A stretch of 64,000 nucleotides of DNA from a virus (taxonomy: Duplodnaviria; Caudoviricetes). How positions within the stretch are numbered: the stretch's first letter is position 1; each line of letters opens with the position of its first letter. The notes below the pieces were generated by a model that was given only the letters and a program-made list of their open reading frames with translations, ran no database searches and was not told the origin of the DNA. The stretch lies in IMG/VR virus record IMGVR_UViG_3300013426_000018, positions 1 through 64,000 of that record; one strand, written 5' to 3'. Positions 6,701 to 50,353 of the stretch are shown here, one piece after another. The translations under genes were made by a program, and so were the position numbers.

Positions 6701-9700
6701 TATCTTTTTCCCACTCCATTGCCCGTATCCAGTCATTTCTGGAACTTCCATATAACCATAATTATGCGTTTTAGCAGCCGATTCAGTATCCATCTTAACA
6801 AAATCTAATTCTGGCTACCAACCTAAACTATCAAAAAGACTAGCGATATCATCAACTGTCATTCCAGCAGCAGATAATAACTCATATAAAGCATTTAAAG
6901 CATTATCATTATTTACTTCTGGACCTATTTCCAAATTAGTGCCCTCTGCTATACTAATTAAAGAATCCATTAAAGAAGTCATATCTCCACTGACTTTATC
7001 TTGGCCTATTAATTTTATAGCTAATCCTTCGGCTACTTTTAACTATAATTTTTCATAAGAACCATCTACACCATCAATAACGTCCTTAATTAAATCCCAA
7101 TTCTAAACAGCAAAATCACTATCTAATGATTTAAAAGTTTCATCAGAAATATCTAAAATCTATTTTAAAGATTTATTTATATCTGGTAAAATATCTTGAA
7201 TATCATCTAATCGTCCAGATTTAATAACTTTATCCCAAGATTCCCAATTCTCGCTAATAGTTTCTACACCTTTATTTAGTTTTGCATGGGCAACTGATAA
7301 CTTTTTAGCAATACGAGTATTTTCTTCTAACGTTTTTCCATTGTTTTTTAACTATTCATTATTTTCTAGCAAATATTCAGTGTAATTAGTGATAGAAGAA
7401 TAATCTAAATCGTTCGCAACAACTTCATTGGCTATGACTCCGTCAAAAGCCTTATTATAAGCTTCAATATTAATTGTTCCATTAATTAAAGCAGCATCTA
7501 AATCATCAATAGAATTGGTACTAGCTCCAAAAGCAATTCGTTTGTTCTCTAATTCTCCAGTTAATTCTAACCAAGCCTAAGCCACTGCTTTAATTTGTTC
7601 TTCAGTGGAGCCAAGGCTATTAAGATCTTCCTATGAAAATCCCATGATATTAGCCATAGCATCAAAAGCTGTAGAATCTTTAAACCCTGTAGGATCTTTA
7701 AGCATTGTTTCAGCTATTTCAGACATCTCATCAGGAGTTGTTTCAATTCCTACTTTTTCTTCAAAAGTTGATACTCCATTCTATATAGCATAAAGAGAAT
7801 CATGAATACTATCCTCTAATTCCTATTGGCTTATTTCTCTAATCTTCTAATTAAACTCATCAGCACTAATAGTTAATACATGAGTACCATTCTATAAATC
7901 TTGAAAATATTGCTGTAGTTCTGGACTTAATTCATCAAAGTATTTATCTTTAATAATACCTTCTTTAGAAATTTGCTCAGCTGCTGTTAACTATTGCTCA
8001 TAATCAGACTACCAAGCTTCTAAATCAAATTCTGCAGGCTAAAAATGTTCTATCTATTCATTTAAATGATTTAGCCATTCCGTAATTGCTTCAGATGAAA
8101 AAAGCTCCTCCATTTTAGCCTTAAAGTTTGAATCTTCCCCAAATAAATCTTCAAAGCTAATTGGGCCACCTTTTTCTTTTAATTTTTCAATATCGTCAGA
8201 AGTTAAATCTCCCGTTAACATCTCAAAAGCATCTTTGCCTTTACCCTTTAAGCCATTAACAAAAGCATTAATATCTTCAACTCGAAGTTCCATCTAAGAG
8301 ACAATTTGTTCATCAGCCTAATTTCTAGCGATAAAATCAGCAATTTTATCATCTGTTAAATTAGAAAGGCCTTCTACTTTATTACCTTCTTCATCAACTA
8401 CGTTATTGCCTTTTATCTCATAATCTTCAGGCAAATATTCTTTTAATTTTTCTTTAAGCTATCCTGTATTATTCTATTCTAATAAGTCTGATTTTAAATC
8501 ATTGATAGTATCTTCTCGGAGACTATTTCCATAATCAATAATTTCATTTTTAAATTGACTATCTTGATAATCAGAATTTCCCTACATTAAAGTAGTTAAA
8601 TTCTAAGAGCCTAAATTGGTCTATAATCTATTATAATTATCCCAATTAGCAAGAGAAGTTTTGGCTAATTCTTCTTTAGAAAGTAAAGAACCCACAGCAA
8701 TCCTATGTAGATTAGGGTCATATTCATCTCCATAAATTCTTTTTCCTAAAAGATCTTCTATTTCATTTTGTCGTTCAGTATCATAATTATCGGAAGCCTT
8801 AGCATAATCATTAAATGACTCTTGGTCAAAAGTATTTGTTTCTGGATTTATCAATCCTTTAACAACATTCTCCCAAGATATTTCGGAAAATGCTCCTCCT
8901 ATTAATGCATTTTCAGCAGTCTCCTAATCTACTTCAAGTTGCTAAGCAGCCGCAGATATTTTCATATTTCTAACAGCGGCTTCTGTTTTTGCGGCTGTTC
9001 GCTACTATTCTTCTTCTTTAGCCTTTTGAGATTCTTCTCTGATTATAATTTCTCCAGAATCCCCAATATACCAGTCTTCATTTTTTATAAGGTTATACTT
9101 TTCTATTAGTTCCCAAGCTTGCTCGTTTGCATTAATTAAAGCATCAGTAAATTCCTAAGTACCCTCTTTTAAACCATGTAAGTTATCAATTCCAGAATTA
9201 TAAGAATCAAAAGTATTTTTTAATTCCTAGTAAGCAGAATTTGCTTTTTGAGCCGCCATTTCCATTTCTTCAGTAGCTGACTATAAAGCCTTTAACTGTC
9301 CTTCTGGGGATGCTTTTTGAAACGCTTTAACTGCTGATACTATGCCCCATATAGCAAGACCAACTGCAACAATAATACCAAGACCAACAGCAGCCGTGCC
9401 AATTACTGTTGCAGTTGCCGCTCCTACTCCAGTAATAGAAGTAACAAGAGTCCCTAACTTTCCAGATAAAGCTCCTAAAGCAGGGATAGCACCTGTAGCG
9501 AATGTTCCAACTGCTTCAATAGATTTTCCAAAAGATGTTATATTTGGACCAATTACCATTATACCTGAAATAATAGTTCCAAATTTTTCCCAAGTACTTA
9601 AATCTTCATCATTTAAACTAGAAATAATAGATTTAACGTTATTTATAAGAGAATAACAACTCATAATACCGCCAGCTAAATTACCAAATGCTTCACTAAC

Positions 9701-12548
9701 AGTAATTACATGCTATGGATTAAGGCTGTCTACTGACGCTTTTAAAGTTTTAGCATTTTCTTCAGCTTGCTCTTCAGACAAACGTAAGTCTAAGAACATC
9801 TACTTAAGCTCGGCAACACTCTTGCCATGCAAAGACTATAAAACAGTTCCAAAATTTTCTCCATTAATAGTCGCTTTATCAAAACTTTCCATGAGATTAG
9901 AAAGAGCCTCTTGAATTTCATTAACGTTTCCAGAAGCCATAGCAATATTAACTTGACGAAATGCTTTATCTAACCCAGTGGCCTATCGGATAGTCTAAGG
10001 AATCAAAGAAGATAGAGATCTTAAATTATTTCTTACTGTATTAATTGCTGCTCCAGCCTATTCAGTGCCCTCTAAATCCCCTAAAGTATCTGACATTTTA
10101 GCTATCTAATCAAAAAAGTTTGAAGACATATCATCTGTAAACAACTTAAAACTCTTAGTATCAATATCAGGATCAGTAAGAGCTTCTAACATTGTTCTGT
10201 TCATAGTATTATACTATTCAGCAATGTCGTTATTAGCAACATCTAAAAACTGTAAAAAGTCTCTGGTATCACTAATAAGAGTATTATATTGCCCGCCTTC
10301 ATTATGAGTACTTAAATTTTCTAATTGATTAATACTACTTTGATCGCTATATTTTCCCAAAGCCACTTCATTAACATCAGTATCTAATAAAGCCTATTTC
10401 TTTAATTCAACATTCTAACGAAGTGTCTCTGTCTGTTGAGTTAAAGCTAACTATTGTTTTTGCTAAGCTTCAATAATATTTAATTCTGTCTAATATCTTT
10501 GTTTTTCAGCATCGCTTAATTTGTCTTCAACTCCAGCATAGCGAAGCTTCAAAGCAGTTAACTAATTGGCCTACTTTAATTCAACCCCGAAAGCAGAATC
10601 TCTGTTGATACCTTTTTCTAACTTAGAAGTATCTTTTCCTTTGTTTTTAGCATCCTAATAAGTATCATATTTTTTGAATTGATCTTCAGTAACTGAATTC
10701 ATCTATGTTAAAATCTTCTAATAAGCTTTATCAGAGCCTTTCGTTAAGACATCAAAATTATATCTTGCCTTATCAATAGCTTCTGGAATTTTATTAGAAA
10801 AATTAGCTAAAATGACACCGCTTAGAGCCATTATAATAGTCTTTAAGCCGCCAGCTTTATCAATAAAATTATCTAATCCACTAATAATATCAGCTAATCC
10901 ATTATTTAAAGAAATAAAGAACTTATCATCAATTAAATCTTGGTAAACACCTTCTGCGGCGGCCCGCACTCGCTTCTACGCAGCTTCCCAAGATTCCGCA
11001 TAGATCTCAGCTTGCTATTCCAGAGTGCCAGTAGACTACTCAGCAACACCAACATTTTCTTTAAAATATTCATAATTATTCATTAAAGCCATAAACTGGC
11101 TATACTATCTTACCATTAATATCTTATGTTTCCATAAGAATTAGACTATATCTTCACTCATTTCTAAGCACTTTCCATTTCAGATATCTCTTACTCCCAT
11201 ATGGGATAGTCGTTGAACTTGAATGACCAAAAGTCATTCGAGCTGCTGATTGTCCAATCTTTAACTTTATTACTTAATATAAGTAGTTAAAGCTCTAAGG
11301 ATTTTCCAGCAATTAAAAAAGTTTTACGCGAGCATAAAATAGTTTACCCGCAACTGTTTGTGCCAAGGCCATTTTCTAATCGTCGGCTAATGTTTGCCAT
11401 TTAGGACCCAGTTCATCAAGAATTTGGTCCATATCTTTAAGGCCACCGCTAGCATCTTTAATATTAATACCAACTTTATCCAAAGCACTAGAGTATTTAT
11501 TCAAAGTGGTACCATCATCAAGCGTCTCTCCCTAGTTTAAGCCCTAAATTCTCGCAAAGAGTGTTTTAAAGGCATTGCCGACAACGTCTGCGCTCTCACG
11601 AGTCCTTGCTGTAACCGTAGCGAGGGCCGCTGTCGCATACTCATAACTTAACCCAACTGTTTTAGCGGTTGCTGCAAATTTATTAATACCTTCAGAAATT
11701 TCGTCAGAGCTAGAAGCAGTTGCGGCACCCAATGCTGTCATAACATCAGCGTAATAAGACAATTCTCTACTGCCATCTGCGAAGTTATTCCAAACGGCGG
11801 TCATCTGATCAGCAATCTTAGAGGTACTTTCGCCTGTCACATTGGCCATTTTGATGGTCGTTTCAGTGCGTTCACGTACCTCATTGTCTCCCAAACCCTA
11901 TTGAAAAAATATCAAACTGCCCTTTGTGTAGTCAGTGGTTGTCGTACTGAGTGCTTTGGCGGCCTTATTTGCCTGTTCTGCAAATTTAGCCATCTAATCA
12001 GTATTATATCCAGTAACAATTCTTATATCTGTTAAAGAAGCATTAAGATTTTGTGCATAGCTATAAGCACTCTATAACGCTCCAGTGAATCCTCTAATAA
12101 TATTATTAGAAATCTAATATTTAGCTGTCTATTTTAAAACCTTGGCAAAGTCCTACATACGAGAGCTAACTTTTAGCATTGGCTAATCGGCCTAAGAAAT
12201 GCTCTAAGCCAGCTTTAAGAAAGCTTGCTAACCAGTATCTCCAGCTCCTATTAATCTGGTAGATAATTCCTATACATTCGTATTAGAAGATTTTAAACTT
12301 TTATCCAGAGCACTTAAATCAAAACGCCCCGTTTTAGCATTATACGCATTATTCAGGTGATAGGATAGTTCTTTCGCAGCTTCTGCTGCATCACGAATCT
12401 TTATCGCTTCAGTACTAAAATTAGCTTTGGTCGTACTGGCACCATCTAATGATATTTTATTTAATAGGGATTGTAATTCTTGTATTGAAGCTTTTGCCTA
12501 TCCGGTATCAGCAGTAAACTTCAATCCAACATTGATCTAATTTCCCAT
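3719..12548 (-). CDS. Tail tape measure protein, ~2865 aa, 2 exons (12548-11346, 11113-3719), TAG=Gln
   Basis: Eight track ORFs lie in the exon-2 frame and end in TAG; TP901-like core (YYADVMTALGAATASSSDEI, VGNAFKTLFAR); splicing gives LAQTVAG|VRQYSQFMALMNN. Confidence 0.92.
11114..11345 (-). ncRNA. Group I intron, ORF-less, 232 nt, in tape measure gene
   Basis: Core elements AATTGCTGGAA / AATCAGCAGC / GTTCAACGACTA / AAGATATAGTCT; P1 GCGGGT:GCTCGC with U-G; terminal G; removal restores frame. Confidence 0.92.
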
Positions 12549-36689: not shown

Positions 36690-37787
36690 TTATTCCTCCT
36701 TTACTGGGAAAGAATCTGTGCTGGATTGCTTTAACCTATTTTGCCCTAACCGCGAATTACGGCAGCATTTACATATACTATAAAAGCCATCAGGAGCTCC
36801 TGGATTTTTACTAAAGTATTTGCCATGAGCTAACTTAACTTGCCCACATCGTCCGCACTTCTTATATCTACCTTTTTCTTCATTAAGATAGTAATAATTG
36901 AGAAACTCATCTTCGGCACAAGAAGCAATTATTTTAGGAATTTTATTACGCCACAAATTAGAAATATACTCAATACTATGCTTTATGCCAAATTCTTTTT
37001 GTATTTTTTCTTGAATTTGAATATTGCGTAACCCATCTACTTTATACTCACAAATGCGGTCATAGAGAGGGTAATTTTTTAAAGCCTTGTCAGCAAGTTT
37101 ATCAAAATCATACATTAAATACCATACATCTTTTTCAAACTCACCCCAGGCAGCTTCTTTAAGCCCACTATAATTGCAGAGAATTGTCGAAACAATTTTA
37201 GGATTCATAAGTGAAATTCCAGAAGGAATAACATAACCATCTTCATCAAAGGTAAAAGCGTCATCCATTTTTAAAAGATAGCGTGAACGAGTTAATTTTG
37301 TTGCGGTGATGGGCTTGCGGTATGCACTTTTTATGACATACTAGTCTTTTCGCAAATCAATAATGGTTTTTTTAATAATATATTTATCTCGACCTTGGGC
37401 TTTTTGTAATCTTTTTTCCCAATCACTAATAGCTTCCCGCACCTAAATTAATTCAGGGATTTCAATTAAATCTTTTTTAGTTATTGATATCTTTGGCTAA
37501 AAAATAGAATTTTTGTTGTCATTTATTAAATTATAAATACCATCTTCGCCATTTTCTAGCTAAGAAACAAGACCTTCATAAGAAGTTTCTCTTTTCCCGA
37601 TTGTAGCCATGCGATTATCAGTAATTAATTTTCGCTATTTTCGTTCTTGTTTCTCCATACAGAGGCATAAGTAATCAGCTAAAACCTCAAGATAAGCCGC
37701 AGGAGGATTTGGATTATCTTCGAGAATTTGTTTAACTAATTCATTACGTTCTTCTGGAGTCTACAATGTATAATCTAATTTTAACAT
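36690..37787 (-). CDS. Hypothetical protein with C-terminal HTH-like and CxxC Zn-finger region (365 aa, TAG=Gln); first gene of the leftward module
   Basis: ATG 37787 after GGAGG, in frame with track ORF 36690-37268. Confidence 0.8.
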
Positions 37788-37908
37788 TTTTGACCTCCAT
37801 TCTACAATTATATTATACCAAAAATTTTTTTGGCATTCCAGAAAAAATAAGTAAAGTATTAAAAAAATTTTATTTGATATTGAAAAAAATTTTTGGTATA
37901 ATAATTAT

Positions 37909-38515: not shown

Positions 38516-39281
38516 AAGGGGAAGTCTTAAATGACTTCCTTTTTTTTTAGCTTAGGATTTAAAGATTGAAATAATTCGTGATTCAGGATTAAAAGAAGAT
38601 TTGGTGATTTTTTAGGTCAGAGCAAACCATTTTAACAAAAAATCAAATTTTTTTCATGAAATATACCCCCCACCTAGACCAGAAAAAAATAGACACCTAT
38701 TGTCGTGATTTTCAAGCACCCCCTTACAGATGGTCTATTTCACCCCCTATATTTGCTCGGCTCAATGGCGACCGCATTGAGCCGAATTTTTGTTACATTT
38801 TGTAACCAGACAATTTTCCATCTATCATATGTCATGCTTCAACCTCTTGAAACTTCCCAAAACTCTTTGAGACATGTTAAATCTCTTCTTGTCTGATGAG
38901 TTAGTATAGACTAACTCCTACTTTCTCAGTAGGTTTATTCCTCTGTCTCATCGAGCATGTCCCTAATTCTTCAATATCCTTAGTTCACTAACTAACCAAT
39001 GGTTGCTTCGCAGGGATGCCAATCGATACTTTTTTATCGATATAAAACCTTATCGATATAATAATATCTAAAAAAATTTTTAATAAATTATCTATTGACA
39101 AATGGTTCATTGTATGATATAATAGTCTTGATACTCTTCTCTTACCTCTCTAGGCAAGACTCACGCAACACGCCGCACCCAATAGACAAAAAGATAAAAA
39201 ATATTTTCAGCAAAACACTTGACAAAGAACGTTTTATGTGTTATACTATAGTCACAAGATAAGTAAAGGAGATAACAACAT

Positions 39282-39641
39282 ATGAAATACACTACTAATC
39301 GTATTATGAACGTTCGCACCCTGAGAAAGCTTGCCAATAATGAAGGCGTGACCCTTCGGAACGGAAAAATCGTCACTTACAAAAGCGGTTGGCAGGTGGC
39401 CATTGCCGGCGTAAAATGTATGAGTGCAGAAGAAGCAATGCTCTTTGTGCGGAAGCTCAATAAAATTGCTCAGTCTCACGGCATTAAAAACGTTGGCATT
39501 TGGGTTGATAATGGTAACTATTATGTTGATATCTGCCGGAGAATCCCCACGAAAAAAGAAGCCGTAAAGATAGGCAAAGATAATGCACAGCTGTCTATTT
39601 ACTATTGGGGCAAACGTAAAGAGTCCCTTGAATGGTTGTAA
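39282..39641 (+). CDS. Hypothetical early protein
   Basis: Own promoter, AAGGAG RBS and terminator. Confidence 0.85.
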   Translation: MKYTTNRIMNVRTLRKLANNEGVTLRNGKIVTYKSGWQVAIAGVKCMSAEEAMLFVRKLNKIAQSHGIKNVGIWVDNGNYYVDICRRIPTKKEAVKIGKDNAQLSIYYWGKRKESLEWL

Positions 39642-39855
39642 GGGAAGGCAAAAGCCTTCCCTTTATTCGTTAAACTACGAAACTTCCCGAAATTGCATAA
39701 ACCAAGGCCTTCCCATATAATTATAACACATAGAAAGCGATTTGTCAAGTATAAAATATCCCAAAAATAAATATTTTTTTTGTATAAAATACTCTTGACA
39801 GAAGCATCTAAATATGCTATAATTAAGGTACAAAAAAGGAAAGGAAATAAAAAAT

Positions 39856-40062
39856 ATGTATTACAACGTTATCGCTACTTACAACATCAATGGAAAGCCT
39901 AGTGAATGCTTGGCAATGCACGACAATAAACAGGCGGTTTTCTTCACTAGAGAAGAAGCTGAAAAGAGATTAGCAGAGGTTAAAGCTCAAGGGTATGAAG
40001 CCCACATTGAAGAACAGAAAAAAGGTTCTGCTTGGTGGGATGATGACAACTGGATTGACTGA
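39856..40062 (+). CDS. Hypothetical early protein
   Basis: Own promoter and RBS. Confidence 0.8.
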   Translation: MYYNVIATYNINGKPSECLAMHDNKQAVFFTREEAEKRLAEVKAQGYEAHIEEQKKGSAWWDDDNWID

Positions 40063-40101
40063 GATATTGAATCTCAGCCCAAAAGAAAAGAAGTAAAAAA
40101 T

Positions 40102-40365
40102 ATGAAAAACTTTGTTAAAATTATTATCATCATTGCGGAAAAAGTTCTAACTGGACACGAAAAGGATGAAAGAACTGCAGTCACTCGTGTCGTAGACCTG
40201 CAAAATGGTGTGGCTACGTTCAAGACTTCCGATGAAAATTTATGGGAGTGGGACATTGAGCCGGGAGAAACTTTTGAAATGCGTTCTTGCTATCGAGTAA
40301 CTTTTGATACTTTGGGAACATCTTTTCTCCTGGATAATGCCATTATCAATATTGAAAGAGATTGA
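40102..40365 (+). CDS. Hypothetical early protein
   Basis: Track ORF followed by terminator. Confidence 0.7.
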   Translation: MKNFVKIIIIIAEKVLTGHEKDERTAVTRVVDLQNGVATFKTSDENLWEWDIEPGETFEMRSCYRVTFDTLGTSFLLDNAIINIERD

Positions 40366-40631
40366 AAAATCTCTTTCTTTTTTTTATCTTTTTTCGAAAA
40401 AAGGTCTTGACAAATGGCCAAAAGTGTGATAATATATAGTCACAAAGGGAAAGGAAAATCCCAAACACCAGAAAGGAAAAACTTATGTTTGACAATTCTT
40501 TCATCATCCCCGGCACTATGGACATTGATTTCTTCGTGGTTACTCCTGATGAACAGTTGGTAAAATGGGACATTTGAGGAAGCTTAAACTTCCTCAACAT
40601 GCCAAAAGAAGCAAATAAAGGAGAATAAAAT

Positions 40632-40781
40632 ATGCTGTACTATCATAATGAAATTACTGGAAGCTGGACTACTAACCATAAAGAGGCAGTTAGCTGGTAT
40701 AATAATGGCTATGCCGTAGAATTGAATAAGATTGACCCCGAAACAGGGGCACTTGAAAAATGCGCCGAATGGGTATGGTAG
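40632..40781 (+). CDS. Small early protein (49 aa) apparently ending in TAG
   Basis: AAGGAG RBS; TAG sits inside hairpin GGTAGGG...CCCTACC followed by a T-rich run. Confidence 0.65.
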   Translation: MLYYHNEITGSWTTNHKEAVSWYNNGYAVELNKIDPETGALEKCAEWVW

Positions 40782-42131
40782 GGCACAAACCCTACCCCCA
40801 TTTATATTTTTTCGTCATTTTGCACAATACCTCTGCGGCGGACACTGTATGTCACACATGGGCATCCTTCTACTGCGTACAAATGTTCAATTCGGAACAT
40901 ATTATCTCAATTCCCGAAACCTAGCTGTATTTCTCACACAGACATCTGTTCTCCCCCTATAGATACCATTGCCGCATTTTTTTTTGTGCAAAATGACGAA
41001 TGATATTGTAAAAATTTTTCTTGACTTTTTGAAAAATATTTGCTATAATGAAGATACAAGAAATGAGAAAGGAATTGATAATTATGACAATGTATGAAAT
41101 CACTTACCGCTATATGGAAGATGGTTCCAGAGATAAGGGTATCTTCTTTGAAGAGGAATGGGATGCTTTTCAAGAGGACAGCGCAGAGGCTGAATGCCCT
41201 GTCCAAGAAGTTTTCTGCAAGACCCTTACTCCCGAAGAATTTTGAAAACACGCTCAGGAAGTTGGCTATGAAGAATCCTATGCCATTGAAATTATGGCAA
41301 TCGCCACTTTAGGCTATGAAGAATGCTCCAAGTATGACAAAGTCAAAGACCTGTCAAGGCTTTTAAAAGAAAAAGGTATCATTTAACAAAAGGGGCTAAC
41401 AAGCCCCTTTTATCCAGAAGAGAGGATAAGATAATATGACAGATAGGGAACTTTTGGACATTCTTTTGTCCCACTTAGATTTTCAAAAAGTTATGGTCGA
41501 TCAAAAAAATTATGTTGAAATTCAAAACGGAACTTTTAATGACAATATTGAATTTGAATTTGACGAAGAAGGAAAAATAACTGGAATCTATTGCTAATAG
41601 GAGGTATGACCAAATGGAAACAGAACCCAATGGGCTTTCAATTTATAAATACAAGGAAGCCATGAAAAAAAACTTATGAAATTATCCGAAATGAAGTAAT
41701 GAAACATCCTTTTTCAATTGGGAGTTATCCAAAAGATAAAGAAGAGTATTTTTGGTATAATGTGAATGCCGCACATTTTAACTTTTATGATTCTTGCGGG
41801 ACTCGATAATGGGCTTCATTATTACTCCTAGATGGCAAACCTCAAAAAATTAAAAGATTATTGGGATATTCTTCTAATGGAAGGCCTTAAAATGATAAAA
41901 GATACTTAGGGCGAAAAATTTCGCCCTAATAATTTTTCGTTCCATTTTTCATTTCGGTTTACTTCTGGTTGCTTACCCTTTCATCCTCCCGCTGCGCCCC
42001 ACAGCGGGAGGATTTTCATTTTTATACAAGACTCACAAATTTTTAGATCGATTTTTGTGTATTCTACCAGTTGACTTCTTTCCTGAAATCGTATATAATG
42101 TTGGTACAACAAATGAAGGGAGCAAACAAAA

Positions 42132-42287
42132 ATGACAATGGAAGAATTAGCAATCGCATGGGCAGCATGGTTCGATATGTACGGAGCAACAGAAGAAAGC
42201 ATTAACAACTTCTGTAATATCTACGCAACAAGCTACGAAGAATATATGGCCATCTATGAGCTGTTGGCTGATGAGCTGGAAACCTAA
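42132..42287 (+). CDS. Small acidic early protein (51 aa)
   Basis: Own promoter and AGGGAG RBS. Confidence 0.65.
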   Translation: MTMEELAIAWAAWFDMYGATEESINNFCNIYATSYEEYMAIYELLADELET

Positions 42288-42577
42288 AAGGAGGACTAAA
42301 AAATGAAATCTTTCACTGATTGGTATAAAGATGTGAGCGGGGGACATGAACCCCCGCATGGGAATCGAGGACTAAGTTGCCCCATTGGGGCAACTTTTCT
42401 TTTCAGCTGCCCAAAATCGCACGCTTTTGGGCAGAATTTTAATTTATAGGCAGTTTCAACAATTTTCCCGGTCAAATTTGTATATTTTGCCAGTTGACAA
42501 ATCTCCCGAAACGCTGTATAATATGTTTACAAGGTAAGGGAAAAGCCCCTACCCCAATAGTAAAAGGAGAATGACTT

Positions 42578-42853
42578 ATGAAAACCATCAAGGAAATCAC
42601 CATCGAACAGATTGACTATGCCTACGAAACGCTTGAAAGAATCTCTCATATGGATAATATGGAATCAATCCATGACACCTTATGGCAAAATTTTAGTGGG
42701 CAAGCTGCTGGTGCGGCGATCACTGGGGCATCTATTCTGCGGGAAATGGACGATAATGCTTCCGCAAATGACGTGCTTGACCACTATAATCATGTGGTTG
42801 CCCCCAAATTTGAAAAGCTGTATAAAAAACTAGTAGGACTAGAGGAAGCCTAA
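42578..42853 (+). CDS. Hypothetical early protein
   Basis: Own promoter, AAGGAG RBS. Confidence 0.8.
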   Translation: MKTIKEITIEQIDYAYETLERISHMDNMESIHDTLWQNFSGQAAGAAITGASILREMDDNASANDVLDHYNHVVAPKFEKLYKKLVGLEEA

Positions 42854-43055
42854 CGGCTTCCTCACCAGAAGGAGAAAATAAAAAATGAGATTCTATTTCA
42901 ATGAGGATGAAAGCACCTGCAGAGAATATTTCGGTTGGTATGAGTGCGAAGTATCTGACGCAATAAAAGAAAAATTTAATGCTTGACAAAATTCCAAAAG
43001 TGTGATATACTAAAAACAGTTAAGGGGGGTAATCCTCCCCTAATAAAGAAAGGGC

Positions 43056-43400
43056 TTGATTAAAATGACTGTTGAAAAAACCCCCATCTCCTATCATGCA
43101 AGCACAGAACGCATTGAACGTTTAACTGCTTGTTTAACTACTCTTGGCTATAATAATTTTGTTCTCCAAGTGGAAGATAAGAAAAGAGGGAATGGAACTA
43201 CTCAATTTCTCACTGATACTGGAATCATTATTGTGCGGAATAGCAATAATGGAAATCTTGTTACTGGATATATGGCCACAATTGCCCAGGCTATTAAAAT
43301 GTATCGTGTGGCAGGATATCAGAAAATGCCTGATGGCATGTATCGGAAAGTCGTGCGGAACAACGAAAAGCATAAAGAATTATTAGATATTCAAAAATAG
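43056..43400 (+). CDS. Hypothetical early protein ending in TAG
   Basis: Own promoter; TAG immediately followed by the -35 of the next promoter. Confidence 0.75.
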   Translation: MIKMTVEKTPISYHASTERIERLTACLTTLGYNNFVLQVEDKKRGNGTTQFLTDTGIIIVRNSNNGNLVTGYMATIAQAIKMYRVAGYQKMPDGMYRKVVRNNEKHKELLDIQK

Positions 43401-43462
43401 TTCTTGACTTTTCAAAAATTTTGTGCTATAATAATCATACAAAAGTTAAGGAGTTGTTAGCT

Positions 43463-43759
43463 ATGATTGATAATTTGAGTACTGTTATGGGAAGCTTATC
43501 CGGCCTGAATCTTGAAGAGCTTAACAAGGTTATTGAAGCCGCCCAGAAGCAAAAAGAAAAAGCAAAAATAGACCAAAAATGTGCGGCCGCTGCCAATTTG
43601 ATAGAAGCTTTTAATGCTTATAAGAAAGCTACCGGAGAAAATGAAATCATTCTTCAAGATTTCTATGATTGCGATTTTAATGGTAATGATCTTTGTGTTA
43701 GAATTGATGATCTTTACCTTGATAGTTATGGAAATATTTGTCAAAAAGTTCTCTATTAA
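43463..43759 (+). CDS. Hypothetical early protein
   Basis: AAGGAG RBS before ATG 43463. Confidence 0.75.
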   Translation: MIDNLSTVMGSLSGLNLEELNKVIEAAQKQKEKAKIDQKCAAAANLIEAFNAYKKATGENEIILQDFYDCDFNGNDLCVRIDDLYLDSYGNICQKVLY

Positions 43760-44239
43760 AATCTTTTTTTTGGTAAAATAATTTGTTTGGGGGAGAACTT
43801 ACAAGATAATTTTACCAAAAATTTTTAATAAAGTCAAATTCAGGGACGGTTTTCGCCCCTGATAAACAAAAGGAAGTGTTTCAAATGAAAAAGAAGAAAT
43901 CTCGTGAAATTTGGAAAAAGACGGGGGAAGAGTTACAGGACTATCTTTTGTTCCGCAAACGTGGCTCTCAGCTTACGAATCGCAAAACGTATAACAGACA
44001 GAGGGCTAAAAAAGAAGAAAAAGAATAATTTCATTTCATATTTGGGTAGCTCCACTTGAGCTGCCCAATGACGTACGTATTGGGCAGAGTTTAAAATACC
44101 CCTAGGGTTCACCATTTTTCAATTGGCAAAATACACAAATATAACGCCCATATTTATCCCAAAATTATGATATTCGCTGGCTTGACATAATAAAAAATTT
44201 GTGGTATAATTTAATTACAAAATAAAGGAGGAACACCTC

Positions 44240-44419
44240 ATGAAAAGATACTTCCGCAGAGTTAGACGTAATATTTGTCGGTGGATTGTTGGTTTTGACA
44301 ATTGCCCTTCCTGTTATCGCTCTAACCCTTGGCGTAGAATTATCTCTGGTATTACTTGTATGGGTATTACTTTTGGGGTTTTGGGTTTCTTCTTTGTTCT
44401 TGTTATTGTTTGTTCGTAA
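44240..44419 (+). CDS. Small membrane protein (59 aa)
   Basis: AAGGAGG RBS; hydrophobic C-terminus. Confidence 0.6.
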   Translation: MKRYFRRVRRNICRWIVGFDNCPSCYRSNPWRRIISGITCMGITFGVLGFFFVLVIVCS

Positions 44420-44432
44420 GGAGTTGTTCAAC

Positions 44433-44870
44433 ATGAGTAAAGTAAAATTTAAGAAGCCAAAAGACAAAAAGAAGTGTACCCACGGGTTTGGCCATATCCG
44501 CACAAAGAATTACGACTGTTTCTTTTTGTTTTTCCCTTTGATTCCTATTGCGTTGCTTCTGGATTGGCTCAATAATAAATATTGGAAAAGCCTTAAATGG
44601 AGCGACTGCACAGCGGAAAAAGTTCTTAATCATTATTTGCCTAAAATGGTAGAATATGATAAAGAAATGGATGGCTTTTTTATTAGGGCTGGTTGGGAAA
44701 AATATCGTTGTGTTCCTTTAGGATATCGCAAATGGTATCAAAAATTTAACACAGAACTTGTTGATTATTTAATAAAAGACTATTGTCCGGATGGGTATAT
44801 AAAAACCTTTGAAAATCTCGATGGATGGAATCCAACACTTTTTTTCAAAGAAATTAAAAAAAGTTCTTGA
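44433..44870 (+). CDS. Hypothetical protein with one hydrophobic segment
   Basis: AAGGAG RBS before ATG 44433. Confidence 0.7.
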   Translation: MSKVKFKKPKDKKKCTHGFGHIRTKNYDCFFLFFPLIPIALLLDWLNNKYWKSLKWSDCTAEKVLNHYLPKMVEYDKEMDGFFIRAGWEKYRCVPLGYRKWYQKFNTELVDYLIKDYCPDGYIKTFENLDGWNPTLFFKEIKKSS

Positions 44871-44951
44871 CAAACCGCCAAAAGTATGATACAATAAAAG
44901 CACAAAAAGGGGAGGGAAAACCTCCCCGGATATCAAAAGGAGTTGATATCA

Positions 44952-45422
44952 ATGATTAAGGAAATCGTATTTGATATGGATGGAAGTTTGAATTTGTTCT
45001 ATGATGTCCCTGGGTGGTTAGAAATGCTTAGAGCATACGACCCCACCCCCTATGAAGTGGCCGAACCTATGTGGGACATGGCTGTCCTTGCGGACGTCCT
45101 CAGAAAACTTCAGAGTCTTGGCATAGTCATTACAGTTGTGACTTGGCTTTCTAAAGGAAGCACTATAGAGTATGACAAAGCCGTACGAGCGGCAAAAAAG
45201 GAATGGCTGGAACGCTATGACTTCCCCTATGATCATTTTCATGGTGTCAAGTATGGAGCAACAAAGGCCGATAGCGTGCGGCGATACCTCAGTCCCGACG
45301 ATGAAGCCATTCTCTTTGATGATAACGCAAAAGTGCGTAAAGGTTGGCATCTTGGCGCAACATATGACCCTGTAAAGGAAAATATCATTGAGATTTTGAA
45401 AGAGCTGGCAAGGGGCATTTAA
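44952..45422 (+). CDS. HAD-superfamily phosphatase/5'-nucleotidase-like protein
   Basis: IVFDMDG motif I, VVTW motif II, K, ILFDDN motif IV. Confidence 0.85.
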   Translation: MIKEIVFDMDGSLNLFYDVPGWLEMLRAYDPTPYEVAEPMWDMAVLADVLRKLQSLGIVITVVTWLSKGSTIEYDKAVRAAKKEWLERYDFPYDHFHGVKYGATKADSVRRYLSPDDEAILFDDNAKVRKGWHLGATYDPVKENIIEILKELARGI

Positions 45423-45909
45423 TGTCTGCCGACAACTTTGAAGCTCCACAGATCATTTCTTACGATAATGAAGGCAACGCCATTGCTGACACTGTTTTTA
45501 GTCGCTGGATGAACTATTTAAAGGAGAGGGCATAAGCCCTCCCCTTTTGAGCTTGCCGATGTGGAACGTATCGGCAAGAATTTCCATTATATCACCTCCC
45601 CACTAAAAAATCAATGGGCAAAGTCAATAAAAATCTTTTTCACAATTTTCCCGAATTTGGTTATTCTACCAATAGACAAATAAGAAGCCTTATGGTATAA
45701 TACATAATGTCAAGAGGGAAAGACAACTGAGGTAAACCACAGCAAGCTAGTGGGAAGGGTTCAAATCCCGATTGAGGGCGCTCAAAAAAAAGTTGAAATT
45801 CCCTCTTGACAAAATAAAAAACCTGTGATATAATAAAGTCAAGAAATGAGGGAACGAACCCCGCAAGGGATTCGCAAGCCCCATTTAATATGAAAAGGAG
45901 ATTTTGACT

Positions 45910-46407
45910 ATGGAAATGTACACTGCCGCTTACAATGCTCTTAAGGAAAGCAACCCCGACTGCGAACTTCTGAAAGCTATGGAAGAAGAATGGGAACTTC
46001 AGTTGGCACTGGATAAAGCCATGAAGGCAGTTGCGTAGGCTAAGAAAAACACCCAGAAGGCAGAAGCAAACCATTATAAGGCCTGTTTCGATGCCGCGCG
46101 TGCGGAATTCGGCAACAGAACTTTCACTGCCGCAGAGCTGGAAGAGTTGGTAAACCATCGTATCAATAAGAACAGCGTGGCTTCTATGATTGCCTATGCT
46201 AAGACCCCTGAGCAGGTCAAGGTGTGGAGCAATAGAGAGAATCGTCGCACAGAAAAGCTTCTCCCCTCTGACATTAGAGATACTGGCAACTACAAGTATA
46301 CAGAAAGACATTTCCTACCTTGCGATGCTTCTGGTAAGCCCATTGAAGGAGCTGCCCCCATCACTATGCGGTCTAAGGGTGCTAAGCTGTATAAGTTTGG
46401 GGATTGA
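45910..46407 (+). CDS. Hypothetical, possibly winged-helix protein (165 aa, one in-frame TAG at 46036)
   Basis: AAGGAG RBS; in frame with track ORF 46147-46407. Confidence 0.7.
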
Positions 46408-46612
46408 GCGGGGGTTTTACCCCCGCTTCAAGGAGATAAAAAAACATGACTGAATTGACTATTTACATGGGCAATTCTGGATGAAGATTTTCAGAAGCTT
46501 CTTTCTCTGAAAAATAAATTTGAAAAAGCCCTTGACAAACGTTCCCAGATGTGATATAATAAGATTACAAAAAGAGAAGGAAACTCTTAAAAACCAGAAA
46601 GGAATTGATACT

Positions 46613-47011
46613 ATGACGAATTTCGAAAAGTTTACTTCCCTGGCTGAGTATTTCCGCACTGGCGTTCTGAATGGCGAGGACGAGGTTGTCCCTGGTTTCA
46701 CCTATGAGGAAGCCGCTCAACTGATGCAGAAGAATGCCGAAGCTCTGGCGAAGAAGGCTGGCAAGACCAGTGCTAAGAGTGAAGAGAAGAGAGAAGAGAA
46801 TGCGGCTCTGGCTGATGCCATCTTCTATCGTATGACCGCCGAGCCTAGCCGCAAGTTCACCCTGGACGAGATGGTAAAGGAGTTCCCCGAGTGCGCCAAC
46901 CTGACCACCGCAAAGGTGAGAGTTGCCATGAAGGGTCTGCTGGACAAGGACGCAGTTAAGACCGAGAAGGTCAAGGGGAAGGCCGTATTCTTTGTGAAGG
47001 TGGAGGCATAA
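46613..47011 (+). CDS. Winged-helix-like DNA-binding protein, paralog A
   Basis: FTLDEM...LTTAKVR...KVKGKAVF; own promoter. Confidence 0.7.
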   Translation: MTNFEKFTSLAEYFRTGVLNGEDEVVPGFTYEEAAQLMQKNAEALAKKAGKTSAKSEEKREENAALADAIFYRMTAEPSRKFTLDEMVKEFPECANLTTAKVRVAMKGLLDKDAVKTEKVKGKAVFFVKVEA

Positions 47012-47608
47012 AGCCTCCCCTTTCCCTGGAAAGGAACGATTGCCTATGATTGCGTAAATGTGACTATATAATTACTAAATAAATTCTAACATTGATGGAC
47101 TTGCTATGGAGGGTTGAATAGTATGCACTGGCGATAGCTAATATACAATAGATTTGAATAAATATACCCCCGGTTTTTCACCGGGGGATTTTTTTTCAGC
47201 TGCTCAACTCCGAGCGAATTGAGCAGAATTTCAATTATACCACACCCCTACCAATTTGTCAATAGGTAATTTGCACAAAAATTTTTACCCCTATTTTCCC
47301 GAAATGTGCGGCCAAGGCTCCCCCGCCTATTATACCACACTTTTGACCACTTGTCAATATCAAAAATAAACGAATTTAGTTCCTTTCTTTTGTGCAATAT
47401 TCCATCTTGTAAATCAGAAAAAAATATAGTATAATACAGGTGTTCCTTGAGAAAGGACGCTCCAAAAGCCACTTGAAAAAATTCAAAAACTTCTAAAAAA
47501 GTTCTTGACAAACAAAACAAGATGTGCTATAATAAGGGTGTTCCAAAGGAAGGAACAAAAAAAATTATTGACAAGGACAGTCGTTAAAACCAGAAGGGAA
47601 TTGATACT

Positions 47609-47986
47609 ATGGCTACTACTAACACTAAGAAGATTACTTCCGTTTCCGCTCTGACTTCTGCTATTGAGGCTCTGACTGGCACTACTTTCCCTGCTGAGAA
47701 GCTGGAAAAGCTGGAAAGCATCAAAGCTGCTTATGAGAAGAAGACTGAGAATGCCAAGAGTAAGTCTTCCGCTAAGAGTGCGGAGAACACTATTATGGGT
47801 GAGAAGATTGTCGCTGAGATGGAGCAGGGCACTAATTACACTCTGTCCGATATTGCGAAGTTCGATTGCCTGTCCGACATGGAGCTGACTACTGCCAAGG
47901 TGCGTGCTCTGATTGAAGCCCCTGTGAATGCTGGTACCCTGGAAAAGGGGTCTATTAAGGGTCGTATGTACTACTGGCTGGCTTAA
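47609..47986 (+). CDS. Winged-helix-like DNA-binding protein, paralog B
   Basis: YTLSDI...LTTAKVR...SIKGRMYY; near-identical RBS region to paralog A. Confidence 0.7.
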   Translation: MATTNTKKITSVSALTSAIEALTGTTFPAEKLEKLESIKAAYEKKTENAKSKSSAKSAENTIMGEKIVAEMEQGTNYTLSDIAKFDCLSDMELTTAKVRALIEAPVNAGTLEKGSIKGRMYYWLA

Positions 47987-48047
47987 GAAAAGGGGCTTTG
48001 CCCCTTTTCCCCATAGGGAAACGTCCCAGAAAGTAGGTGAATGAAAA

Positions 48048-48434
48048 TTGACCAAAAGCCAAGAAGCCCAGATTGAAGCGTGTCGCAAACTAGGCATGAC
48101 TGATGAAGAGATTCAGGGAATGCTTAACGATGATAAAGAAATTGACCGTTCTGGCATGAATACCAAGGTTTTCGATTGGGAACTTGACCCAGAAGCTCAT
48201 AAGAAAGCCGTTAAATATGCCAATAGTGACGAGAAGAAGAATAAGGGCGAAAAGAAAAAGCCCACACGCAAAGCGGATAACGTTAAGCGTGAAATTATTC
48301 AGCTTCTTTTTGATTGTATTGATGTAAACTATCCAGGGGCTATTATTGAGAATCCTGAGAAGTATGTCAAATTCACTATTGGGGAAGATGAATATACCAT
48401 TTCTCTGATTAAGCATCGCAAGCCAAAAGAGTAA
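48048..48434 (+). CDS. Hypothetical protein
   Basis: Track ORF, TTG start after AGGTG. Confidence 0.75.
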   Translation: MTKSQEAQIEACRKLGMTDEEIQGMLNDDKEIDRSGMNTKVFDWELDPEAHKKAVKYANSDEKKNKGEKKKPTRKADNVKREIIQLLFDCIDVNYPGAIIENPEKYVKFTIGEDEYTISLIKHRKPKE

Positions 48435-48537
48435 AGGAAAGTGATACTATGAATAAGGTGTAGGGGAACTAAGATTCCCCGCTTCAATAGAGAAAAGATG
48501 TTACCCTCTATTGAGATTTGAAAAGGATTGATATTAT

Positions 48538-49392
48538 ATGAATAAGTTTGACCGCCGTAGAAAGTACTGGCTGATTTTGGATTGCGAAACCGCAACTTTG
48601 CCTGAAGCATCTAAGTATGACGCAGACCCCGCTATGAAGCAGAAAGTAGCTATTGCGAAGCCCCTTATCTATGATTTGGGGTGGACAGTAGTGGACGCTC
48701 AAGGCCGCATTTACGCAAGACAGAATTTTCTCATTGCGGAAATTTTTTCTAATCCGGTAGTATTCAATACTGCCTATTACAAGGATAAGCGCCCCGGTTA
48801 TATTGAGAAAATCGCAATGGGTGAGGTTCGTGTTGTAATGTGGGAAGAAGCTATTGGGGAACTCTTAAATGATATGTCCCAGTGTGAAGGCGTGGGGGCT
48901 TATAATTCTATGTTTGACTTCAAGAAGGCACTTCCCTTTACTGATTTGTACCTTTCTAAGGTCTATGCACCTGATTTTGCGGAATGGATGGAATATCAAA
49001 ATAAAATTATTTCTGAAATTGCCCGGGGTAAGAGAGGACAAAACGAAAAAGAATTTGAAAGTGATGTTTTCCGATTCCGTGGGCAGGTTTTTCCCCTTTT
49101 TGATGTTTGGGGACTTGCTTGTAAGCACATTTTGAACTGTGACGAATACAAGAACATGTGTTCGGACAATGGATGGTTGACTGCATCGGGCAGATACTAT
49201 AAAACGAGTGCAGAAACTGCATTTCGGTTCGTTGCTGGTGATGATTCTTTCATCGAAGCACATACTGCACTTGAGGACGCCCTTATTGAATCCCTTTTGT
49301 TCGCTGAGTGCATGAAGCGAACCAAAAAGAAAATCGAGATGGGAATTATTTATTTCCCGTTCAAGATGTTGGGCGAAATAGGGGCGGAATAA
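48538..49392 (+). CDS. DEDDh 3'-5' exonuclease
   Basis: ILDCET, AYNSMFD, HTALEDA motifs. Confidence 0.88.
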   Translation: MNKFDRRRKYWLILDCETATLPEASKYDADPAMKQKVAIAKPLIYDLGWTVVDAQGRIYARQNFLIAEIFSNPVVFNTAYYKDKRPGYIEKIAMGEVRVVMWEEAIGELLNDMSQCEGVGAYNSMFDFKKALPFTDLYLSKVYAPDFAEWMEYQNKIISEIARGKRGQNEKEFESDVFRFRGQVFPLFDVWGLACKHILNCDEYKNMCSDNGWLTASGRYYKTSAETAFRFVAGDDSFIEAHTALEDALIESLLFAECMKRTKKKIEMGIIYFPFKMLGEIGAE

Positions 49393-49617
49393 TCCGCCCC
49401 CAAGCCAAAAGGAGAAGATAAAAATTGTTCTACCTCTTGGCAAATAGTTTTGCTTATACTATAATAGACCTACCAATAAAGAAGAGCAAGACCCCACTTG
49501 GACAAGGGGTTGTAAAATATGGGATGATGTTTTGAATTATTTGATGAGCCAAGGTGGAGATATAGACGTAGCATGGATTGAGCCGATTAAGTTTGAGGAT
49601 GAGGAGAAAGAAGAAAA

Positions 49618-49836
49618 ATGCTAATTGAAAGACGGTCGCCTATTAATTTGGTGCCTTTTGAGGATGTTTTCCCCGGCGTAGTATTTAAGGATGAAGATGG
49701 CACTATTTGTATGAAAGTAGAAAGAAAGCAAAACAATTTTTTCTATAATGCAGTTAACCTTGAGACAGGAAATCTTTACTCATATGACGATAGTTGTATA
49801 GTTGAGATTCTTGAGGACGCAATTTTAACATATTAA
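49618..49836 (+). CDS. Hypothetical protein
   Basis: GAGGAG upstream; followed by terminator. Confidence 0.7.
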   Translation: MLIERRSPINLVPFEDVFPGVVFKDEDGTICMKVERKQNNFFYNAVNLETGNLYSYDDSCIVEILEDAILTY

Positions 49837-50353
49837 AGGGAAGCGTAAGCTTCCCTTTTTTGTTATACAAGTTTTGAGCGGAGCGATTTTGATCAAATCG
49901 CTCCGAATTTTGAATTTGTCAAGTATTTAGAAAAAATTTTACAATTATCTGTCTTTCGCCTGCGGGCGTCTGTTTTCCCATAATAGACATTTGAGCGGTT
50001 CGACGCCGGAGGTGTTGAGCCGAATTTCCCCAATAAACCTCCATATGGGATTTTTTTGCTCAATCCAGCGACTTTTACCTTTCCCCTATTTCTCCCATAA
50101 ATACCCCATATGGCTTCGCTCGATTCAATCTAGGAACTTTTATCTTTCTATTTTCCCCATTTTTCTTGCCTAGCCTTTGCTCCGCTGTAGCTAACAAAAA
50201 TTTTAGCTACGGTTACTTCCCTTCCAAGTATTCGCAAATCCAATAGAGTAACAAAAAAAACAATACTACAGCTTCTCTAGCTCATTAAATTTTAGTCGGG
50301 GACAGATAAAATCCGACCAAGAGAGAAAGATAATAAAAACGGGCGGCCCCGCC

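Follow-up and report, generated by a model that had tools for sequence, protein, structure and literature searches.

The promoter-early stem-loop (PeSL) cassettes of T4-type phages (Arbiol et al. 2010, PMC2839356; Comeau et al. 2014, PMC4122927) are, by analogy, the closest precedent for the hairpin-promoter cassettes analysed here. In PeSLs the stem-loop, for which termination has been demonstrated experimentally, sits between the -35 and -10 hexamers or overlaps the -10 (PMC2839356). The formation of mini-circles is a further PeSL trait. The carrier of the elements described below is an uncultured gut phage with a genome of 174 kb; they lie in its early-gene region, within a 64,000-nucleotide stretch of the DNA (the window). 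They share with PeSLs a repeated intergenic cassette of ~100 bp that joins a near-consensus sigma-70 promoter to a stable stem-loop, a location in a plastic region of small orphan genes that is linked to indels between relatives, and stems whose sequences differ between lineages. They differ in their carriers, which are related to large Firmicute-type siphoviruses, have another host and read TAG as Q, and in the place of the hairpin, which precedes the -35 by about 60 nt and neither separates nor overlaps the promoter hexamers. Further differences are the additional operator-like sites, the conservation of a spacer motif, of the loop and of the single-stranded flanks, and the frequent presence of a divergent leftward promoter.

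Other known hairpins resemble these elements in part. Like intrinsic terminators, they have T residues behind a GC-rich stem, run in the direction of the upstream gene and come after stop codons; unlike them, they place an invariant A and a purine between the stem and just 3-5 T, have 7-11-nt loops with conserved bases and a fixed length, and often stand behind a better terminator. The hairpin promoters of the N4 virion RNA polymerase likewise belong to a phage early region and are small DNA hairpins between conserved flanks, but their geometry is different (a 5-7-bp stem and a 3-nt loop) and they need the virion RNA polymerase. In this phage, which encodes a sigma factor, the giant ORF of 2473 aa matches tape measure families, and a search for a phage RNA polymerase with PF00940 gave no match, a weak point since the control matched nowhere.

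Eight hairpins in the early region

All eight hairpins listed in the preliminary description are present on the + strand of the window: copy 1, the first of the early region, at 38758..38784 (50.3 bits), copy 2 at 41985..42011, copy 3 at 42407..42434, copy 4 at 44061..44087, the type B copies 5 and 6 at 45552..45578 and 47200..47226, copy 7 at 49879..49905 and copy 8 at 49996..50022, the last followed by a conserved non-coding stretch that adjoins the replication-initiator region. When the closing pair and the 3' flank are made obligatory, the region from 38 to 51 kb contains eight matches on the + strand and none on the - strand, against a mean of 0.026 and a maximum of 1 in 1000 dinucleotide shuffles of the same region. 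The whole 174-kb genome yields eight matches on + and one on -; this last match is unrelated, and no family member other than the eight was found in the genome.

Every copy has a C-G closing pair and a 10-position stem with at most one mismatch (a single C-A in hairpin 47200), and G-T pairs are found in hairpins 44061, 45552 and 49996 (three in the latter). The eight paralogues present eight different stems that stay paired and tolerate G-T, as had been claimed. The flanks also agree with those first described, since TT(G/C)AG precedes six of the eight hairpins (TTTGCT or TTTCAT the other two) and AATTT, AGTTT or ATTTT follows them. Folding energies range from -11 to -22 kcal/mol in the window and descend to -35 in the related genome G005; for copy 8 the value is -17.9 kcal/mol on the + strand versus -6.2 for its complement. 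The observation that several hairpins come just after a separate terminator applies to five of the eight (41985, 42407, 45552, 47200 and 49879), which have a separate terminator-like hairpin before them within about 60 nt. Copy 3 is located directly 3' of the terminator at 42374-42396, copy 7 is 3' of the one at 49835-49858 and copy 5 has a canonical terminator hairpin before it; copy 4 is the sole terminator-like structure 3' of the gene at 43885-44028.

A covarying family in related phages

The hairpins are real members of an undescribed family whose base pairs covary. The covariance-model search that had been suggested as a check recovered 71 distinct copies from >20 related viral or MAG contigs. 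The carriers, uncultured gut phages of Clostridia in which TAG is recoded, form a clade, and Oscillospiraceae and Acutalibacteraceae are the hosts suggested by the MAG contigs. Copies always have the orientation of the early genes and cluster within about 10 kb, in the early region only. Across the 71 distinct copies, 94.4% of the stem cells are paired and compensatory double changes occur at all 10 pairs; this pairing and covariation was matched in 0 of 500 shuffles, and slid controls were 28-42% paired. The family also recurs at matching positions in relatives, which, together with the compensatory changes, indicates that the structure is under selection: in G002, the positional homologue of copy 1 has the same 5' flank and a different but compensated stem, and that of copy 6 has conserved flanks and an unrelated stem. 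In a comparison with Rfam models, group I introns were the only matches at the gathering score and the hairpins themselves returned nothing at E up to 5, and the family was found neither in the Enterococcus phage EF1, whose sigma factor is 39% identical, nor in the relative G001.

Stem pairs 1-8 are about 99% paired and free of bulges, whereas pairs 9-10 are open in about one third of the copies, and the stems of G005 extend to 13-15 bp, with 4-5 T. What stays constant is therefore a 27-nt element with an 8-bp core. The 10-bp stem with a 7-nt loop of the preliminary description is valid for the window, with an 8-nt loop in hairpin 42407, but not as a strict rule across the family, where loops measure 7-11 nt. 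Conservation extends to unpaired positions, with TTSRG on the 5' side, ARTTT on the 3' side and the motif nCGnnCG in the loop, where position 3 is G in 87% and position 6 is C in 82% of the copies. Pair 6 is C-G in 97%, T(-4) of the 5' flank is present in 96%, and on the 3' side A(+1) is invariant, the second base is a purine and three T are near-invariant. On either strand 649 of 710 pairs, nearly all, are of the Watson-Crick type, and the strand signal of pairs 1-8 (5 G-T versus 0 A-C on the gene-sense strand) is weak. Assigning the strand from all pairs (13 G-T versus 9 A-C in the first set, 21 versus 13 overall) was discarded, as only the weak signal of pairs 1-8 is left.

The hairpin as the edge of a promoter cassette

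The hairpin is not free-standing, but constitutes the upstream (left) edge of a repeated promoter cassette of ~115 bp, in which operator-like TTGCACAA/TTGTGCAA sites and a sigma-70-type promoter follow in this order. The promoter spacer motif TCCCGAAA is found 71-73 nt 3' of the hairpin in 52 of 75 contexts, and a spacer-type motif occurs at +72 after all eight window copies (at about 38856, 42082, 42505, 44158, 45650, 47298, 49977 and 50094). One example is the TTTTCCCGAAA motif ('F') at 47294..47304 (+), about 72 nt past the hairpin end. The rightward promoter behind copy 3, at 42494..42522 (+), combines TTGACA, a 17-nt spacer with the F motif at 42503-42512, and TATAAT; copy 2 is followed by a rightward promoter with its -35 at 42071, its -10 at 42094 and the spacer motif at 42080-42088, and copy 4 by a spacer-type motif at 44156-44164. 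The gap from the hairpin end to the -35 measures about 60 nt in most copies, and the distance is constant even where the operator sites have moved by 24 nt or where unrelated sequence lies between.

Other promoters adjoin the hairpin itself. In a few copies a consensus promoter lies on the left, with its -10 ending 2-4 nt before the stem, so that the transcript would start within the 5' arm. On the right side of copy 5 there is a leftward sigma-70-type promoter (45586..45614, -; TTGATT, 17-nt spacer, TATAAT and TG), and next to copy 6 a leftward consensus promoter (47234..47262, -; 12/12 matches and TG), both with a -10 that ends 7 nt from the hairpin. A leftward -10 at 7-8 nt, with a suitably spaced -35, is present in 22 of 75 copies and conserved across genomes.

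The larger fixed-geometry cassette that contains the hairpin had been overlooked in the preliminary description. Two additional helices were considered within it and rejected. In TTGCACAA/TTGTGCAA, variants in one arm are uncompensated in the other, which argues against an RNA helix and for sequence-specific double-stranded DNA sites. For a long-range helix between the 5' flank and TCCCGAAA that would enclose the cassette, the complementarity is merely T/A-richness and does not covary.

An insulating terminator as the leading interpretation

From the sequence data, we tentatively regard the hairpin as a rightward insulating terminator or attenuator in a PeSL-like mobile regulatory cassette, with a probability of about 0.42. 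The cassettes head blocks of small early ('host-takeover'-like) genes. According to this model, the hairpin would fold in the rightward RNA that reads out of the preceding block. Together with its ARUUU tail, it would terminate or attenuate the incoming transcription, leaving a protected 3' end, and the regulated promoter about 60 nt downstream would thereby be insulated from upstream read-through. The promoters that adjoin the hairpin would start inside or beside it and thus escape it. Being repeated as a whole, the cassette may also provide portable homology for the gain, loss and swapping of gene blocks, in the manner of PeSLs.

Several features point to termination. The hairpins are located 3' of stop codons or of another terminator; they are stable and GC-rich, lie 3' of a gene and on its strand, and are all co-oriented. 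The excess of G-T over A-C in pairs 1-8 and the three near-invariant T also count in its favour. In G005 most copies are the sole terminator-like structure between promoter-led genes. The promoter or spacer motif at a fixed offset, in 52/75 hairpins overall and 8/8 in the window, speaks for a composite cassette of the PeSL type, and so does the adjoining consensus promoter on the left of some hairpins, whose start within the 5' arm follows PeSL logic (PMC2839356). Some gene-content breakpoints between relatives coincide with the cassette edges; these, the chimeric module and the endonuclease cassette described below count in favour of its mobility.

The tail is less typical of a terminator. 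It consists of A, R and TTT plus 0-2 more T, so that the T-tract is short and displaced from the stem, and its d'Aubenton-type score is 1.08 versus a background of 0.74, and no higher in the copies without another terminator. A lenient terminator scan was passed by five of the eight window copies, and a canonical terminator precedes 20 of 36 copies, which would be redundant as terminators. Moreover, G3 and C6 of the loop, pair 6 and T(-4) are needless for a plain terminator, and the constant hairpin-promoter spacing is not required of an insulator. The weak and offset T-tract, the conserved loop and the constant spacing together keep alive the alternative of an element bound by a factor.

Alternative interpretations

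According to this alternative, which is possible but doubtful, the hairpin would not be a plain terminator. It would serve, in the form of RNA, single-stranded DNA or a cruciform, as a docking site for a factor from the phage or the host, and would work jointly with the promoter lying at a constant distance, for instance as an upstream control element, as an auxiliary operator or by coupling termination to re-initiation. It would account for the conservation of the nCGnnCG loop, A(+1), T(-4) and the sixth C-G pair while the other stem pairs covary, for the F motif or promoter at +71 to +73 despite shifted operators or an unrelated spacer, for Watson-Crick pairing on both strands, and for promoters of both orientations placed to start transcription at the hairpin base. 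Nevertheless, constant spacing is also found in PeSLs, through shared descent, and no candidate binding protein came up, the early genes being devoid of informative domains. Phyletic profiling of the G000 proteins present in the hairpin-bearing G007 and absent from the hairpin-less G001 yielded, besides orphans, an exonuclease, a phosphoesterase and a vWA/DUF2828 protein; none of all these is a credible hairpin binder. Stems of 8-10 bp with 7-11-nt loops are, in addition, poor at cruciform extrusion.

It is unlikely that the hairpin, rather than being a simple terminator, is a structure-specific element by which the end of one transcription unit is physically coupled to a promoter, either the one at the constant distance of 60 nt downstream or the divergent one 7 nt away. 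Such coupling might take the form of polymerase hand-over or recycling after termination, or the hairpin might act from upstream, as a hairpin or a cruciform, in the control of a class of regulated promoters. The reader of the hairpin would be either a separate factor or the RNA polymerase itself.

Somewhat less probable still is a signal for RNA processing or stabilisation, in which a host endoribonuclease of the RNase Y/E type would cut the flanks and the hairpin would protect the new ends, splitting read-through early transcripts into units like the RNase III sites of T7 and SP82 early RNA. The account of PMC4838370 attributes to Panganiban and Whiteley (1983) conserved hairpins in Firmicute phage early mRNA, which represent a precedent. 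Like those sites, the hairpins described here are conserved and separate early genes of virulent phages, and the conserved single-stranded flanks (G before the stem, ARUUU after it), the position between transcription units and the gene-sense orientation suit this interpretation. RNase III sites, however, are irregular helices of ~20 bp or more inside one long transcript, whereas these stems, of 8-10 bp, are too short for RNase III and lie between separately promoted units. Since most units are equipped with a promoter and a terminator of their own, there would be little polycistronic RNA left to cut, and the constant distance to the promoter is not explained.

The hairpin could also be the 5'-terminal stem-loop of short or antisense RNAs made from the leftward or the adjoining rightward promoters, stabilising the RNA or acting as a put/nut-like antiterminator, but we consider this improbable. 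In the 22/75 copies with a leftward -10 at 7-8 nt, transcription would start 0-3 nt ahead of the stem, and the RNA of copy 6 would end at a bidirectional terminator, with a length of about 70 nt. Against this, about 70% of the copies have no adjoining promoter, the leftward consensus promoters at 39748 and 47357 lack a hairpin, most leftward RNAs would have no terminator, and the G-T versus A-C counts favour the opposite strand. The earlier suggestion of an sRNA family is for this reason only partly tenable, since leftward consensus promoters adjoin just about 30% of the copies. CRISPR-repeat mimicry and CsrA sites were discarded as well, given that no CRISPR-DR model matches the hairpins and that a GGA loop is found in only a minority of copies.

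The idea that the hairpins mark cassette boundaries, to be checked against gene-content breakpoints, was borne out in part. Homology-block ends fall within 15 nt of a hairpin in 12 of 93 cases versus 2.8 expected, although these represent just 2-3 independent events; homology between relatives begins 7 nt before the hairpin or stops about 86 nt after it. In G006, an HNH homing-endonuclease cassette is inserted between two copies, and the hairpin is the sole sequence common to both its junctions. Most breakpoints between close relatives, however, are away from the hairpin, one module is a chimera of two, and one clear crossover lies in an operator site, inside the cassette and not in the hairpin, as homologous recombination predicts.

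Site-specific recombination at a structure-recognised site that inserts or excises gene cassettes, following the logic of attC or REP, is very unlikely: the hairpins share with integron attC sites variable stems of which the fold would be recognised, conserved ends, a single orientation and one copy per cassette, and some breakpoints map exactly to them, but their flanks TTSRG and ARTTT are not inverse complements like the RYYYAAC/GTTRRRY cores, their stems lack extrahelical bases, their cassettes carry their own promoters, no IntI is present, neither PF00589 (tyrosine recombinase; positive controls detected) nor PF01797 (Y1 transposase) was found in five genomes, two of them complete, and the hairpin flanks contain no 5' guide tetranucleotide of the GTAG type (REP/RAYT, IS200/IS605).

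Implications for phage early regions

The family of cis-elements defined by this analysis is undescribed and has a usable covariance model; its carriers, uncultured gut phages of Clostridia, make up a widespread clade. The portable promoter and stem-loop design of the T4-type phages, which infect Gram-negative hosts, would have here an independent and more elaborate counterpart, to which the conserved loop, the constant spacing, the operator sites and the divergent promoters are additions. The family helps to annotate early regions and transcription units in phages that have no cultured relative, and may offer a concrete system for how phages insulate, regulate and shuffle their host-takeover genes.

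Genomic context and census of the hairpins

The source record, an IMG/VR virus of 173,969 bp judged complete, whose first 64 kb form the window, has genes on both strands of the window. Minus-strand genes at 1-36 kb are open only when TAG is read as glutamine (e.g., a 2473-aa ORF); their products include portal, tape measure and tail proteins, and five group I introns occur on the minus strand. The giant ORF is a tape measure protein; no T7-like RNA polymerase was found, in a search whose control was uninformative. A phage sigma factor gene (36690-37904, minus strand) faces an 11-kb + strand early region of ~25 very small genes. Their promoters come close to the TTGACA/TATAAT consensus, their ribosome-binding sites are strong and their terminators ordinary, and recognisable domains are nearly absent from them. 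According to the sigma factor and a DnaQ-like exonuclease, the nearest cultured relatives are large Enterococcus phages (30-40% identity).

Recoding of TAG as Q, clear in the late genes, also occurs in one early gene, 45910-46407 (TAG at 46036). Early ORFs 41084-41386 (TGA at 41243-41245) and 41616-41760 contain an in-frame TGA, sensibly W, and the frame seems to run on to a terminator; this may represent read-through, a second recoding or pseudogenes, and no homologue turned up among the related loci that were searched.

The eight hairpins that the preliminary description located between 38755 and 50027 are all present there, every one (8/8) on the + strand. The search rule demanded that the stem close with C-G and have no more than one mismatch over its ten positions, that the loop measure 7-8 nt and that the 3' tail be present; under it, 38-51 kb gives eight matches on the + strand and none on the - strand, and 1000 dinucleotide shuffles give a mean of 0.026; the full genome adds no + match and one unrelated - match. 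Since the window holds eight hairpins versus ~20 promoters and ~15 ordinary terminators, the hairpin is tied to one promoter class and not to every gene.

Covariation and anatomy

Related contigs were gathered by protein-anchored and pattern-anchored searches. A covariance model seeded with 14 copies returns 77 matches with E < 1e-4, 71 of them distinct; each genome has several, all in one orientation, at intervals of 0.6-2 kb and confined to ~10 kb. Covariation, which the preliminary description had proposed to check, is borne out: among the 71 distinct copies, pairing is kept in 94.4% of cells, a level reached by no shuffle, with double (compensatory) changes at all ten pairs, although the copies share ancestry and were aligned by fitting to the model; against this caveat, the element is ungapped and the window's eight paralogues have eight different stems. 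When the partner is slid by 1-3 columns, pairing falls to 28-42%. Window copies 1 and 6 each have a positional counterpart in the relative G002, with the same flanks and a different yet complementary stem.

The consensus reads, 5' to 3', T T S R G, the arm C G G C N C G N N N, the loop n C G n n C G, the complementary arm and A R T T T. Every copy has A(+1), and T(-4) is kept in 96%; C-G forms the sixth pair in 97%, and loop positions G3 and C6 reach 87% and 82%. Pairs 9-10 are often open. Stem pairs are overwhelmingly Watson-Crick, and the five G-T versus zero A-C pairs counted on the gene-sense strand (pairs 1-8) weakly support folding of that strand. Variants include stems of 13-15 bp with their own conserved apex (genome G005) and a closing pair now T-A (locus L104).

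No Rfam model matches the hairpins, and Enterococcus phage EF1 and the relative G001 lack the family. Some copies occur on MAG contigs whose labels (Clostridia, Oscillospiraceae, Acutalibacteraceae, Eubacteriales) hint at the host range. Genome G000 encodes, at 97773-99401 (locus L194, 3774-5402), a protein of 542 aa that matches DUF2828, DUF7788 and, weakly, vWA; it is shared with hairpin-bearing G007 and was not found in hairpin-less G001.

Organisation of the cassette

The hairpin opens a cassette of ~115 bp. A TCCCGAAA-type motif starts 71-73 nt past the stem in 52/75 distinct contexts, and at +72 in 8/8 window copies; the usual cassette has it inside the 17-nt spacer of a rightward promoter (-35 near +61, -10 near +84). 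Between hairpin and promoter stand TTGCACAA at ~+22 and its inverse TTGTGCAA at ~+45, an 8-mer pair that every relative also has in its cassettes and that resembles an operator for a putative regulator. A helix between the two was rejected, as changes in one are uncompensated in the other; they are double-stranded DNA sites. Type B cassettes (22/75 copies, window copies 5 and 6 among them) have a consensus leftward promoter abutting the hairpin, its -10 ending 7 nt away. A few copies have a consensus rightward promoter that stops 2-4 nt 5' of the stem.

Several local variations accompany this layout. Short iteron-like repeat arrays, of 'taaagcactaaagc' or 'aatcgcta' type, replace the operator pair after some hairpins in L002 (genome G002; 8300-8650 and 1900-2050) and locus L099 (~11500 and ~13500), with the TCCCGAAA-type motif still at +72. 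In the window, a 15-nt inverted repeat around TTGCACAA and TTGTGCAA (40808-40825 and 40983-41000) brackets a 170-nt non-coding stretch. After cassette 5 (45673-45800), a promoter precedes a ~90-nt non-coding stretch with a T-loop-like GGTTCAAATCC hairpin, terminating in an A-run just 5' of the next promoter; ARAGORN and Rfam make no call in this interval, and analogous short 'GTCAAGrGG...' transcripts are predicted in relatives' type B cassettes. The non-coding 50023-50330, after the last hairpin, is conserved in genomes G003, G006 and G007, where a consensus promoter ends 2 nt before the hairpin; adjoining the initiator region, it may give an origin-proximal transcript.

A second, very uniform + strand promoter class (39795, 40407, 41021, 42983, 43404, 44867, 45806, 46532 and 47505) consists of an A-rich stretch, CTTGACAAAC, 11 nt and TGnTATAAT; it heads most small early genes, never with the hairpin or the TCCCGAAA spacer motif. 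Further consensus leftward promoters, on the - strand at 39720-39748, 47329-47357 and 43809-43837, have neither ORF nor hairpin; two of the three carry a reversed TCCCGAAA motif ~25 nt into the predicted RNA, and they would produce antisense RNA to upstream early genes.

Breakpoints between relatives

Between G003 and G007 (~93% identical), homology restarts exactly 7 nt 5' of one hairpin. An additional block of 742 bp separates two cassettes in G003; at that place G007 has a single chimeric cassette with the crossover in the TTGCACAA site. In G006, a 750-bp insertion encodes a free-standing HNH homing endonuclease (locus L100, oriented copy, ~9445-10176, reverse), exactly between two hairpin copies with little in common beyond the hairpin; it has its own promoter of the cassette class, with the motif again at +72, and at this place G007, G003 and loci L163 and L176 carry a single hairpin and lack the HNH gene. 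The preliminary description had proposed testing whether breakpoints between relatives map to the hairpins, which holds in part: over all pairs, 12/93 block ends fall no more than 15 nt from a hairpin, where 2.8 would be expected, and several others fall at the right edge of the cassette, ~86 nt downstream. These ends represent only a handful of independent events, and between the closest relatives most breakpoints lie elsewhere.

Function of the hairpin

The favoured reading, with a probability of roughly 0.42, is that the hairpin would terminate or attenuate rightward transcription, insulating a regulated promoter with which it moves. Several features fit this: all copies point the same way and sit between genes, their GC-rich stems covary, the T residues do not vary, a promoter always follows, and some promoters overlap the stem, so that their own RNA would escape the hairpin. 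Against a plain terminator stand the short, offset T-tract (tail score 1.08 versus a background of 0.74, and no better in copies without another terminator), the better terminator upstream of more than half of the copies, the conserved loop and flank bases, and the distance to the promoter, constant despite a 24-nt operator shift or unrelated intervening sequence; these features hold the reading at that level and keep four rivals. The most credible of them, although unlikely, is an element bound by a factor and coupled to the promoter. A signal for RNA processing or stabilisation, for which the SP82 RNase III sites cited in PMC4838370 offer a precedent, is improbable, and a 5'-terminal hairpin of RNAs from the abutting promoters more improbable still. 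A site-specific recombination site is very improbable, block ends near hairpins notwithstanding, and tyrosine recombinases and Y1 transposases are absent from five genomes.

The proposed insulating terminator and its promoter match in design the promoter-early stem-loop (PeSL) cassettes of T4-type phages. There, termination by the stem-loop was demonstrated, and orphan genes are shuffled when cassettes recombine with one another (PMC2839356, PMC4122927). The hairpin family is itself undescribed and lineage-specific, and follows a logic with known precedent.
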